55,000 nucleotides of DNA from NCBI RefSeq assembly GCF_003334355.1, contig NZ_QOWP01000026.1. One strand, given 5' to 3'. This DNA is from Escherichia coli (GTDB lineage: Bacteria > Pseudomonadota > Gammaproteobacteria > Enterobacterales > Enterobacteriaceae). A program made the position numbers and the translations under genes. The notes below the pieces were generated by a model that saw only the letters and a program-made list of their open reading frames with translations, had not been told where the DNA came from and made no database searches. The number at the start of each line of letters is the position of its first letter. Within the stretch, counting starts at the first letter, position 1. Of the stretch, positions 8,391-11,546 are shown in pieces.

Positions 8391-11030
8391 ATGCTGGGTA
8401 AATATAAAGCCGTTCTCGCGCTGTTATTACTGATTATTCTTGTGCCGTTGACGCTGTTGATGACGCTCGGGCTGTGGGTTCCCACGCTGGCGGGCATCTG
8501 GCTACCGCTCGGGACACGTATTGCATTAGATGAAAGCCCACGCATTACGCGTAAAGGTTTAATCATTCCCGATCTCCGTTATCTGGTGGGAGATTGTCAG
8601 CTTGCGCATATCACCAACGCCAGCCTTTCACATCCCAGCCGCTGGTTATTGAACGTCGGCACGGTAGAACTTGATTCTGCTTGTCTGGCGAAATTGCCGC
8701 AGACGGAGCAATCGCCAGCTGCTCCAAAAACCCTCGCGCAGTGGCAGTCCATGCTGCCTAACACCTGGATCAATATCGATAAACTGATTTTTTCTCCCTG
8801 GCAGGAATGGCAGGGAAAACTCTCTCTCGCATTAACCTCTGATATCCAGCAACTGCGTTATCAGGGCGAAAAAGTTAAATTTCAAGGCCAGCTGAAAGGG
8901 CAACAACTTACAGTCAGCGAACTGGATGTCGTCGCGTTTGAAAATCAGCCGCCGGTTAAACTGGTGGGGGAATTTACTATGCCGCTCGTGCCGGATGGAC
9001 TTCCTGTAAGTGGACATGCTACTGCGACGTTAAACTTGCCGCAGGAACCGTCACTGGTGGATGCAGAGCTGGACTGGCAGGAAAATAGCGGGCAATTGAT
9101 TGTGCTGGCACGGGATAACGGCGATCCGTTGCTCGATTTGCCGTGGCAAATTACTCGTCAACAATTGACCGTAAGCGATGGTCGCTGGAGTTGGCCGTAT
9201 GCAGGTTTTCCTTTGAGTGGCCGACTGGGTGTCAAAGTCGACAACTGGCAGGCAGGGCTTGAGAACGCTCTGATCAGCGGACGACTGAGTGTGCTGACCC
9301 AGGGGCAAGCGGGTAAAGGCAACGCGGTGCTAAATTTTGGCCCAGGAAAATTAAGCATGGATAACAGCCAGCTGCCTCTGCAGCTGACCGGTGAAGCGAA
9401 ACAGGCGGACCTCATTTTATATGCCCGCTTACCCGCGCAGCTAAGTGGAAGTCTGACTGACCCAACGCTGACCTTTGAGCCAGGCGCGTTACTTCGTTCA
9501 AAGGGAAGAGTCATCGATTCGCTGGACATCGATGAAATCCGCTGGCCTTTAGCGGGTGTAAAAGTCACCCAACGTGGTGTTGACGGACGTTTGCAGGCCA
9601 TCTTGCAGGCGCATGAAAATGAACTGGGCGATTTCGTGCTGCATATGGATGGGCTGGCGAATGATTTTCTCCCTGACGCTGGCCGCTGGCAGTGGCGCTA
9701 CTGGGGAAAAGGGAGTTTTACACCGATGAATGCCACCTGGGATGTCGCAGGAAAAGGTGAGTGGCATGACAGCACGATTACGCTGACCGATCTCTCCACC
9801 GGTTTCGACCAGTTACAATACGGTACGATGACGGTAGAAAAGCCGCGATTAATTCTCGACAAGCCCATCGTCTGGGTACGTGACGCACAGCATCCCTCCT
9901 TTAGCGGCGCGCTGTCACTGGACGCCGGGCAAACGCTGTTCACTGGCGGCAGTGTGTTACCGCCATCAACCTTAAAATTTAGCGTCGATGGGCGCGATCC
10001 TACCTATTTCCTCTTTAAAGGCGATTTACATGCTGGTGAGATTGGCCCGGTTCGGGTAAATGGTCGCTGGGACGGTATTCGTCTGCGCGGTAACGCCTGG
10101 TGGCCTAAACAATCACTGACCGTATTCCAGCCGCTGGTGCCACCCGACTGGAAGATGAACTTACGCGATGGTGAACTGTATGCTCAAGTTGCATTTTCTG
10201 CTGCGCCTGAACAAGGATTCCGCGCGGGAGGGCACGGCGTGTTGAAAGGCGGTAGTGCCTGGATGCCAGATAATCAGGTTAACGGTGTCGATTTTGTCCT
10301 GCCTTTCCGTTTTGCCGATGGAGCCTGGCATCTGGGGACTCGCGGCCCCGTTACGTTGCGAATTGCCGAAGTGATTAATCTGGTGACAGCGAAAAATATT
10401 ACGGCTGATTTGCAAGGGCGTTATCCGTGGACTGAAGAAGAACCCTTGCTGTTGACTGATGTTATCGTCGATGTGTTAGGCGGTAACGTGCTGATGAAAC
10501 AATTACGTATGCCGCAACATGACCCGGCGCTGTTGCGGCTGAATAATCTCTCATCCAGCGAACTGGTTAGCGCCGTCAATCCGAAACAATTCGCCATGTC
10601 CGGGGCATTTAGTGGTGCATTGCCGTTATGGCTAAACAACGAAAAATGGATAGTGAAAGATGGTTGGCTGGCAAATAGCGGGCCAATGACCTTGCGGCTG
10701 GATAAAGACACCGCAGATGCGGTGGTGAAAGACAATATGACTGCGGGTTCAGCAATTAACTGGTTGCGCTATATGGAAATTAGCCGGTCATCGACAAAAA
10801 TTAACTTAGATAATCTCGGTTTATTAACCATGCAGGCCAACATTACAGGTACCAGTCGCGTTGATGGTAAAAGCGGTACGGTAAACCTTAATTACCATCA
10901 TGAAGAGAATATTTTTACGCTGTGGCGCAGTTTACGCTTTGGCGATAATCTCCAGGCATGGTTGGAGCAGAACGTACGTCTGCCGGGAAATGACTGTCCG
11001 CAAGGAAAAGAGTGTGAGGAAAAACAATGA
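8391..11030 (+). CDS. ydbH: AsmA-like family protein YdbH (envelope lipid-transport family)
   Basis: 879 aa ORF with an N-terminal transmembrane anchor (LALLLLIILVPLTLLMTLGLWV) and a long periplasmic body; first gene of a three-gene overlapping operon. Confidence 0.9.
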   Translation: MLGKYKAVLALLLLIILVPLTLLMTLGLWVPTLAGIWLPLGTRIALDESPRITRKGLIIPDLRYLVGDCQLAHITNASLSHPSRWLLNVGTVELDSACLAKLPQTEQSPAAPKTLAQWQSMLPNTWINIDKLIFSPWQEWQGKLSLALTSDIQQLRYQGEKVKFQGQLKGQQLTVSELDVVAFENQPPVKLVGEFTMPLVPDGLPVSGHATATLNLPQEPSLVDAELDWQENSGQLIVLARDNGDPLLDLPWQITRQQLTVSDGRWSWPYAGFPLSGRLGVKVDNWQAGLENALISGRLSVLTQGQAGKGNAVLNFGPGKLSMDNSQLPLQLTGEAKQADLILYARLPAQLSGSLTDPTLTFEPGALLRSKGRVIDSLDIDEIRWPLAGVKVTQRGVDGRLQAILQAHENELGDFVLHMDGLANDFLPDAGRWQWRYWGKGSFTPMNATWDVAGKGEWHDSTITLTDLSTGFDQLQYGTMTVEKPRLILDKPIVWVRDAQHPSFSGALSLDAGQTLFTGGSVLPPSTLKFSVDGRDPTYFLFKGDLHAGEIGPVRVNGRWDGIRLRGNAWWPKQSLTVFQPLVPPDWKMNLRDGELYAQVAFSAAPEQGFRAGGHGVLKGGSAWMPDNQVNGVDFVLPFRFADGAWHLGTRGPVTLRIAEVINLVTAKNITADLQGRYPWTEEEPLLLTDVIVDVLGGNVLMKQLRMPQHDPALLRLNNLSSSELVSAVNPKQFAMSGAFSGALPLWLNNEKWIVKDGWLANSGPMTLRLDKDTADAVVKDNMTAGSAINWLRYMEISRSSTKINLDNLGLLTMQANITGTSRVDGKSGTVNLNYHHEENIFTLWRSLRFGDNLQAWLEQNVRLPGNDCPQGKECEEKQ

Positions 11031-11212
11031 AAATTTTACTGGCTGCGTTGACGTCATCTTTTATGCTGGTTGGCTGTACGCCTCGCATTGAAGTCGCTGC
11101 ACCTAAGGAACCGATCACTATCAATATGAACGTTAAAATTGAGCATGAGATCATCATCAAGGCAGACAAAGATGTCGAAGAGCTGCTTGAAACTCGTAGC
11201 GATCTTTTCTGA
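11027..11212 (+). CDS. ynbE: Small lipoprotein YnbE
   Basis: 61 aa ORF with lipobox MKILLAALTSSFMLVGC; its start overlaps the ydbH stop (ATGA). Confidence 0.85.
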   Translation: MKILLAALTSSFMLVGCTPRIEVAAPKEPITINMNVKIEHEIIIKADKDVEELLETRSDLF

Positions 11213-11219
11213 GGTGATG

Positions 11220-11546
11220 ATGAAGAAAACATTACTTCTTTGTGCGTTTCTTGTTGGGCTGGTAAGCAGCAATGTAATGGCATTGACTCTGGATGAAGCC
11301 AGAACTCAGGGGCGGGTAGGTGAAACATTTTACGGTTATCTGGTTGCGCTGAAAACGGATGCTGAAACAGAGAAATTAGTAGCCGACATTAATGCCGAAC
11401 GTAAAGCGAGTTACCAACAACTGGCAAAGCAAAATAATGTGTCGGTAGATGATATCGCGAAACTCGCCGGGCAAAAGCTCGTAGCTCGGGCCAAACCGGG
11501 GGAATATGTACAAGGGATAAACGGTAAATGGGTGCGAAAATTTTAA
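11220..11546 (+). CDS. ydbL: Periplasmic protein YdbL (DUF1318-like)
   Basis: Track ORF 11139..11546 trimmed to the ATG giving MKKTLLLCAFLVGLVSSNVMA (signal peptide); the start may equally be the adjacent ATG at 11217. Confidence 0.8.
   Translation: MKKTLLLCAFLVGLVSSNVMALTLDEARTQGRVGETFYGYLVALKTDAETEKLVADINAERKASYQQLAKQNNVSVDDIAKLAGQKLVARAKPGEYVQGINGKWVRKF

Follow-up and report, generated by a model that had tools for sequence, protein, structure and literature searches.

How phospholipids travel to the outer membrane (OM) in Gram-negative bacteria was long unexplained, and the YdbH-YnbE-YdbL system counts among the three redundant answers that work of 2021–2026 has given. The genes of this system, ydbH, ynbE and ydbL, lie in a stretch of 55,000 nucleotides (nt) of Escherichia coli DNA (contig NZ_QOWP01000026.1 of RefSeq assembly GCF_003334355.1), the whole of which is called here the window. 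The question raised by the locus is how its three products belong together. The sequence-only reading, a note made earlier from the letters of this DNA without database searches, saw one large AsmA-like protein followed by two small exported proteins, and took the overlapping or near-abutting stop and start codons as a sign of a stoichiometric complex. Considering the window, its relatives and the published work, we hold it highly probable that the locus is the canonical operon, in which YdbH and YnbE build a phospholipid bridge connecting the inner membrane (IM) with the OM, YdbL modulates this bridge and the translation of the genes is coupled.

[quoted passage not shown] The 3.5-kb stretch is 100% identical to E. 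coli strain PSS-12, the locus was found in 5410 of 5426 complete E. coli genomes, and RefSeq annotates the three genes between ldhA and feaR both in a 100%-identical E. coli record and in K-12. The coordinates of ydbH and ynbE are those of the list of open reading frames (ORFs) of the window. This mechanical list starts ydbL at TTG 11139; ATG 11220 was taken as the start instead, because ydbL is annotated from there and this start fits the signal peptide. The features of the operon and its surroundings are given below with their position, strand and basis.

8184..8390, plus strand: divergent intergenic region between ldhA and ydbH, 100% identical to K-12; presumed site of the operon promoter
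8391..11030, plus strand: ydbH, encoding the 879-amino acid (aa) IM-anchored AsmA-like / repeating-beta-groove protein (ORF, PF11739, NF007971, RefSeq)
8412..8468, plus strand: N-terminal hydrophobic helix of YdbH, codons 8–26 (Kyte-Doolittle; role as IM anchor from PMC11126948)
11016..11020, plus strand: Shine-Dalgarno (SD) sequence GAGGA of ynbE inside the 3′-end of ydbH (sequence; intragenic SD in PMC11126948)
11027..11030, plus strand: ATGA, the ynbE start overlapping the ydbH stop (sequence, conservation)
11027..11212, plus strand: ynbE, encoding the 61-aa OM lipoprotein that extends the YdbH groove (PF13617; function from PMC11126948)
11066..11077, plus strand: YnbE lipobox L14-V-G-C17 (alignment of 84 YnbE)
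11114..11158, plus strand: amphipathic beta-strand I30–I44 of YnbE, I-T-I-N-M-N-V-K-I-E-H-E-I... (alignment, structure model, PMC11126948)
11159..11209, plus strand: K45–F61 of YnbE, C-terminal helix and RSDLF tail, the YdbL-binding site (model; binding from 10.64898/2026.03.16.712125)
11210..11216, plus strand: ynbE stop TGA overlapping the SD sequence GAGG(TG) of ydbL, followed by the 7-nt gap (sequence)
11220..11546, plus strand: ydbL, encoding the 108-aa periplasmic DUF1318 protein, a chaperone-like modulator of YnbE (PF07027, PDB 28oj_A)
11220..11282, plus strand: YdbL signal peptide, residues 1–21, cleavage VMA|L (sequence; the crystallised chain starts at L22)
11680..11720, no strand assigned: perfect 18-bp hairpin, candidate bidirectional terminator (RNA fold)

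The products were assigned to known families. Residues 14–863 of YdbH match PF11739 ("Intermembrane phospholipid transport protein YdbH") with an E value of 1.9e-290 in the Pfam scan, and the NCBIfam equivalog NF007971 covers residues 1–878, scoring 1399.6 bits where the cut-off is 824. At about residues 8–26 lies the sole strongly hydrophobic 19-mer of the protein, with its highest mean Kyte-Doolittle value (2.95). In the literature YdbH is assigned to the AsmA-like clan / repeating beta-groove superfamily, of which a chorein-N-like N-terminus and an uninterrupted hydrophobic groove are characteristic (PMC8593681, PMC11126948); in this respect the Pfam scan of YdbH gave only an insignificant DUF748 match (E 0.25), and a look-up of solved YdbH structures returned none. 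YnbE matches PF13617 (YnbE-like lipoprotein family, Lipoprotein_19; E 3.7e-16) and carries a lipobox whose C17 is present in 84 of 84 aligned YnbE sequences, position 16 being G or A. In the same alignment C17, I30, I32, N33, V36, H40, I42 and D47 are invariant and residues 30–44 alternate between hydrophobic and polar, as would be expected if one side of the strand lined a lipid groove. YdbL matches PF07027 (DUF1318; E 2.2e-31), and its residues 22–108 are identical to PDB 28oj_A ("Probable chaperone-like protein YdbL"), the crystallised chain of which begins at L22, directly after the end of the signal peptide. No NCBIfam model matched YnbE, YdbL or the HI_1241 protein described below. The gene identities and the division into one large AsmA-like protein, a lipoprotein and a second exported protein, all proposed from the letters alone, were thus borne out by the family matches, the lipobox, the signal peptide and the identity to 28oj_A.

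Most of what can be said about the function of these proteins comes from recent publications. YdbH is redundant with TamB and YhdP, and cells die when tamB, yhdP and ydbH are all lost (Ruiz et al., mBio 2021, PMC8593681). YdbH and the lipoprotein YnbE were demonstrated to form an IM–OM bridge by beta-strand augmentation (Kumar, Davis & Ruiz, PNAS 2024, PMC11126948): p-benzoyl-phenylalanine (pBPA) cross-links formed in vivo connect W791/W857 at the YdbH C-terminus to YnbE, cells without tamB and yhdP require ynbE but can dispense with ydbL, YnbE gives multimer ladders, and proline pairs in the I30–I44 strand disrupt its function. In the same study AlphaFold-Multimer was run on YdbH, YnbE and YdbL, excess YdbL was lethal and dominant-negative in the tamB yhdP background, and YdbL acted chaperone-like on YnbE multimerisation (PMC11126948). 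The crystal structure of YdbL (PDB 28oj) was accompanied by evidence from nuclear magnetic resonance and native mass spectrometry that it binds the C-terminal YnbE peptide E39–F61, and free YdbL, which is hard to detect, is degraded by DegP (De'Ath et al., bioRxiv 2026, 10.64898/2026.03.16.712125). The YdbH of Pseudomonas aeruginosa (PA5307) likewise depends on the neighbouring YnbE (PA5306), and fusing the YhdP C-terminus onto this YdbH bypasses YnbE if the fusion is long enough (Protein Sci 2025, PMC12447247). The system is therefore already known: the structure prediction, the tests of physical association and the synthetic lethality with paralogues, all of which the sequence-only reading had named as ways to check it, are in print and came out in its favour, and its remark that the roles of the two small partners are much less well characterised no longer holds (PMC11126948; 10.64898/2026.03.16.712125). 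Because the window holds a near-K-12 copy of the locus, it adds no new biology by itself.

The contact between YdbH and YnbE was also modelled here with AlphaFold2 (AF2) from 31 paired sequences, in which the last 180 residues of YdbH were joined to mature YnbE by a 25-residue Gly-Ser linker. In the fused model the YdbH part consists of consecutive beta-strands with a predicted local distance difference test score (pLDDT) of 80–95 (linker < 50), YnbE I30–E39 forms a beta-strand (pLDDT 70–81) and K48–T56 a helix. The predicted arrangement reproduces the published picture of YdbH-YnbE.

These results are compatible with the following scheme. One N-terminal helix anchors YdbH in the IM, and a long beta-sheet with a hydrophobic groove reaches into the periplasm. 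YdbH alone is too short to arrive at the OM, and the amphipathic strand of YnbE (I30–I38/44) augments the last YdbH strand, possibly with a few YnbE copies piled into a short stack. The acyl chains of phospholipids would slide along the completed IM–OM bridge, which is functionally redundant with TamB-TamA and YhdP. YnbE can polymerise uncontrollably in an amyloid-like manner, and periplasmic YdbL binds its C-terminal helix and tail, limits this polymerisation and helps docking onto YdbH. Surplus YdbL titrates YnbE and becomes toxic when the cell depends on the YdbH bridge. Translation would be coupled, and the protein ratio thereby fixed, by stop and start codons that overlap or abut, together with the SD sites located in the upstream genes. 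The complex itself, its need for YnbE, the multimerisation of YnbE and the binding of YdbL to YnbE are documented in the literature, and the flow of lipid through the groove, the copy number of YnbE and the actual strength of the coupling are the steps that we infer.

The coupling is suggested by the gene junctions. The ynbE ATG (11027–29) overlaps the ydbH TGA (11028–30) in the ATGA that had been pointed out at 11027..11030, and the SD sequence GAGGA stands 6 nt upstream of the ynbE ATG. The ynbE stop (11210–11212) is embedded in TGAGGTG, so that TGAGG overlaps the SD-like GAGG of ydbL, whose ATG follows after a 7-nt gap. Other gene pairs of the window also have 4-nt or 1-nt stop/start overlaps (22837/22840, 23604/23604, 26233/26233 and 41007/41007); since such overlaps are common in the window, the ATGA alone is unremarkable. 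Its conservation was followed in a scan of one genome per species, seeded with an alignment of 17 YdbH sequences, the best 80 loci of which were all from Enterobacteriaceae (YdbH identity 62–96%). The ydbH stop and the ynbE start overlap in 79 of these 80 species (62 with ATGA, 17 with TAATG) and are separated by 2 nt in the remaining one, and GAGG or AGGA precedes the ynbE start in all 80. Among distant lineages, which were sampled one by one and have YdbH relatives of 26–40% identity, ATGA or GTGA occurs at this junction in 7 of 11 loci. TGAGG with the 7-nt gap between ynbE and ydbL is kept in 56 of the 73 species having ydbL. It is the conservation of the ydbH/ynbE overlap, rather than the overlap itself, that exceeds chance. 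Coupling through ATGA was discussed explicitly in the literature (Kumar, Davis & Ruiz, PNAS 2024, PMC11126948), where YnbE-FLAG dropped without ydbH and the effects of the tag suggested a lowered translation of ydbL. In the P. aeruginosa locus (L094 of our set, ynbE ORF at 4764–4979) the annotated ynbE start lies 20 nt past the ydbH stop, and an in-frame ATG at 4764 would make ATGA with that stop (4767); owing to this upstream ATG, the coupling geometry may be conserved there too.

The operon is not inherited as a uniform block of three. A ynbE gene lies directly downstream of ydbH in 80 of 80 Enterobacteriaceae species, and a Lipoprotein_19 gene follows ydbH in 9 of 10 distant loci, mostly with a 4-nt overlap. 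In turn, ydbL was present in 73 of the 80 species and missing from the whole 14.6-kb locus in seven (L033, L041, L045, L061, L063, L066 and L083), and no DUF1318 gene was found near ydbH-ynbE in any of the 8 evaluable distant loci (L085–L089, L092 and L093 among these). When loci were sought via YdbL, the full triad, its gene order unchanged, was seen in Proteus mirabilis, P. aeruginosa, Photobacterium and Azospirillum, the YdbH match of the last being weak; word-indexed homologue searches with YdbH and YdbL gave close relatives only among the matches listed. Judged by this distribution, ydbH-ynbE is an ancient and nearly obligate pair and ydbL an old but dispensable accessory, which fits the published genetics. 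As ynbE is co-conserved with ydbH nearly everywhere examined, the separate fate of the small ORFs that would speak against the sequence-only reading was not observed, and their expression is evident from the YnbE production and the ydbL phenotypes described in the literature. Two further loci were noted in this survey. A longer YdbH relative of 973 aa on an AT-rich contig (L091:3001–6133) is the sole sampled ydbH without an adjacent ynbE, and no ynbE-like ORF of at least 30 aa was found in the 210 nt between it and the next gene. An orphan ydbL was seen on a Phenylobacterium plasmid.

The presence of ydbL goes together with how YnbE ends at its C-terminus. YnbE ends in an RSDLF-type tail in 67 of 77 loci with an adjacent ydbL, and a further 7 of the 77 have the RSDLF or RSDIF motif followed by 3 to 5 extra residues. 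The RSDLF tail is gone in 12 of 13 ydbL-less cases and kept in one (Fisher p 2.7e-8, with no phylogenetic correction). This co-occurrence lends indirect support, as an evolutionary echo, to the published interaction between YdbL and the YnbE tail.

Several points weigh against the bridge with coupled translation as we describe it. According to the authors themselves, lipid transfer by YdbH-YnbE is without biochemical demonstration, and the modelled YdbH with one YnbE measures ~180 Å versus a periplasm of ~250 Å (PMC11126948); the work on P. aeruginosa hints at a further OM partner (PMC12447247). We infer translational coupling from the geometry of the junctions and from indirect effects of plasmid constructs. 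In our fused model the pairing of the YnbE and YdbH strands was deduced from DSSP strands only, and the co-occurrence statistics given above ignore phylogeny.

Among the other explanations, it is unlikely, in our estimate, that YdbH, YnbE and YdbL make a fixed 1:1:1 stoichiometric complex with YdbL as a permanent structural subunit. The conserved gene order and tight spacing would suit such a complex, AlphaFold-Multimer and MultiFold2 give a 1:1:1 model that places the YdbH C-terminus in touch with both YnbE and YdbL, and the YdbL substitutions W104A and K107A at the predicted YdbH interface lose function. However, YdbL is needed neither for the YdbH-YnbE cross-links nor for viability, it escapes detection at native levels and is a substrate of DegP, and YnbE forms ladders of multimers. 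Moreover, ydbL is absent from 7 of the 80 Enterobacteriaceae loci and from 8 of 8 evaluable distant ydbH-ynbE loci, and a natural IS1 deletion takes it out in E. coli. Of the stoichiometric complex of the sequence-only reading, the complex was borne out by the published YdbH-YnbE cross-links and the role of YdbL, whereas a fixed stoichiometry is not established, since YnbE multimerises and YdbL is not required. It would be the ratio of the proteins rather than a fixed 1:1:1 composition that matters, and coupling would help to set this ratio. It is very unlikely that YdbH-YnbE is an envelope tether or signalling scaffold which affects the lipid homeostasis of the OM indirectly and is no phospholipid conduit. 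In favour of it, transport itself has not been observed directly, the loss of single genes gives no phenotype and the complex as modelled falls short of the width of the periplasm, but the synthetic lethality ties YdbH to TamB and YhdP, and papers on these two increasingly point to lipid passage through their groove, and the conserved hydrophobic face of the YnbE strand continues the groove (84-sequence alignment; PMC11126948). The label of a dicarboxylate-transport protein, attached to YdbH in some older database records and still read in the source names of some homologues ("Dicarboxylate transport"), was rejected as almost certainly wrong, since a single transmembrane (TM) helix joined to a large beta domain in the periplasm is not how a transporter is built, the current name in Pfam, NCBIfam and RefSeq is intermembrane phospholipid transport protein, and all genetics point to OM lipid homeostasis with no dicarboxylate uptake phenotypes reported.

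The phospholipid bridge modulated by YdbL being the preferred explanation, the natural variation of the locus within E. coli offers material to examine it. Compared with K-12 MG1655, the window has no nucleotide difference in ynbE, ydbL, the two junctions and the two flanking intergenic regions, and the YnbE and YdbL proteins are identical. In ydbH there are 37 differences, which result in six substitutions (A120S, A196T, V295I, S356T, S692I and A862V), none of them at the published suppressor sites (T303, G305, G308, G456) or cross-link sites (W791, W857). The distribution of the changes over 8184–11717, with 37 in ydbH and none in the ~900 nt of ynbE, ydbL and flanks, suggests a recombination mosaic with a possible breakpoint near the end of ydbH. 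A divergent ynbE-ydbL haplotype with 60–80% nucleotide identity to the window is present in 481 of 5415 E. coli genomes (about 9%). In one of its carriers, strain 1504D004 (L099), the divergence starts inside ydbH near the position corresponding to 10590 of the window and spans to 11546; its YdbL shares 72% identity, its mature YnbE departs at two residues alone, E52D and E55K, which both fall in the YdbL-binding helix, the motifs at the junctions are unchanged and the downstream fea/tyn/paa island is absent. The YdbL interface residue E60 is replaced by A in this haplotype, a change (E60A) reported as neutral, and no compensatory changes could be called between YnbE E52D/E55K and the published YdbL interface residues. 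In E. coli LP5-1 (L100), an IS1-associated deletion removes ydbL through ydbD/ynbA and leaves ydbH-ynbE intact. The ydbL-less lineages and the divergent haplotype could serve as ready-made allele swaps, and LP5-1 is a ydbL-null wild isolate.

In Pasteurellaceae a different gene accompanies the pair. In 7 of the 8 loci examined, the gene directly upstream of ydbH-ynbE encodes an uncharacterised polytopic membrane protein of ~270 aa (PF27206, "HI_1241") with a conserved KGQICPGQRGRL motif, and three loci have a 1-nt TAATG overlap there; when the search started from HI_1241, ydbH-ynbE was found downstream in 2 of 3 further loci. These Pasteurellaceae loci are without ydbL and have HI_1241 instead. 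The HI_1241 genes are located as follows.

L085:2177–3001, HI_1241 gene
L086:178–990, HI_1241 gene
L087:2177–3001, HI_1241 gene
L092:131–949, HI_1241 gene
L093:1940–2755, HI_1241 gene
L101:4001–4807, HI_1241 gene
L102:4001–4831, HI_1241 gene

The family has ~130 members in a large protein collection, and every named one is a Pasteurellaceae "hypothetical protein"; a literature search for HI_1241 returned no paper mentioning the family. Its AF2 model is confident (pLDDT 89.7, predicted template modelling score 0.89) and has about eight TM helices, and fold searches gave only orthologues, weak matches to Vibrionaceae proteins of unknown function and generic bundles of the NrfD/DmsC/CydAB type. 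A tblastn search with HI_1241 against a plasmid collection, which includes mislabelled E. coli, Proteus and Klebsiella chromosomes, gave no match at all, and thus no E. coli homologue. It is a tentative and rather doubtful idea that the YdbH bridge consists of an invariant ydbH-ynbE core and an interchangeable, lineage-dependent third component. In such an arrangement the third component would be periplasmic YdbL in Enterobacterales, Pseudomonas, Vibrionaceae and Azospirillum, repeatedly lost with the RSDLF tail of YnbE, and HI_1241 would stand in its place in Pasteurellaceae. The window itself contains nothing of this variation. HI_1241 is a lead for an IM partner, no more than that. If it did partner the membrane anchor of YdbH physically, it could be the missing scramblase-like, lipid-loading IM component of the AsmA-like bridge, and the candidate Pasteurellaceae partner might make the question of lipid loading testable. 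The joint loss of ydbL and the YnbE tail, the divergent haplotype, the natural deletion and the coupling with HI_1241 are new by-products of this analysis, as they do not occur in the literature searched.

The signals that frame the operon were also sought. Consensus scans for sigma-70 promoters and terminators over 8100–11800 did not exceed shuffled sequence in the number of sites and marked none where they would be expected; consequently, the promoter of the operon was not located. A perfect 18-bp hairpin (11680–11720; −33.8 kcal/mol, z −7.7, a stability reached by none of 200 shuffles) stands where ydbL and feaR converge and overlaps with the stop codon of feaR. It was left unflagged by the terminator scan because it has no U-tract on either strand, and it may be a bidirectional terminator or a stabiliser of mRNA 3′-ends. 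At the gathering threshold, Rfam has no RNA family in or near the operon. In the 55-kb window the sole matches at this level are MicC (2458–2578, plus strand, 125 bits) and RydC (54222–54285, minus strand, 92.5 bits). Farther from the operon, the autotransporter gene ydbA is split into two ORFs that overlap (30732..33845 and 33830..36793), as would fit a frameshift pseudogene, and in the closest strain RefSeq gives ydbA as frameshifted and also interrupted by IS3. At the position of gapC (52491–53492, minus strand) the window has an intact ORF of 333 aa, annotated by RefSeq in PSS-12 as an intact type I glyceraldehyde-3-phosphate dehydrogenase; in K-12, gapC is a pseudogene.

The system of the window can be compared with several known ones, first of all with YdbH-YnbE-YdbL of K-12, which has the same locus, the same gene order and the same neighbours, ldhA and feaR. 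The eukaryotic VPS13 and ATG2 are, like YdbH, repeating-beta-groove proteins, and mediate bulk lipid flow at contact sites; AsmA-like proteins are regarded as their ancestors. They differ in being single giant polypeptides that partner scramblases, whereas no IM scramblase is known for YdbH. TamB-TamA and YhdP are paralogous AsmA-like bridges of E. coli; TamB and YhdP are IM-anchored repeating-beta-groove proteins as well and are collectively essential and redundant with YdbH (PMC8593681). TamB docks onto the Omp85 beta-barrel TamA, while the short YdbH is completed by a stackable small lipoprotein and served by a dedicated periplasmic modulator. The Lpt bridge (LptC-LptA-LptD) shares with YdbH-YnbE a trans-envelope hydrophobic groove made of edge-to-edge beta-strands of separate proteins (PMC11126948), but it is built of the beta-jellyroll fold, powered by an ABC transporter and loaded with lipopolysaccharide, and no energy source is known for YdbH-YnbE. 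Finally, YdbL resembles CsgC of the curli system in its relation to YnbE, as CsgC is likewise a periplasmic protein that restrains the premature amyloid-like beta polymerisation of its partner, CsgA (PMC11126948).

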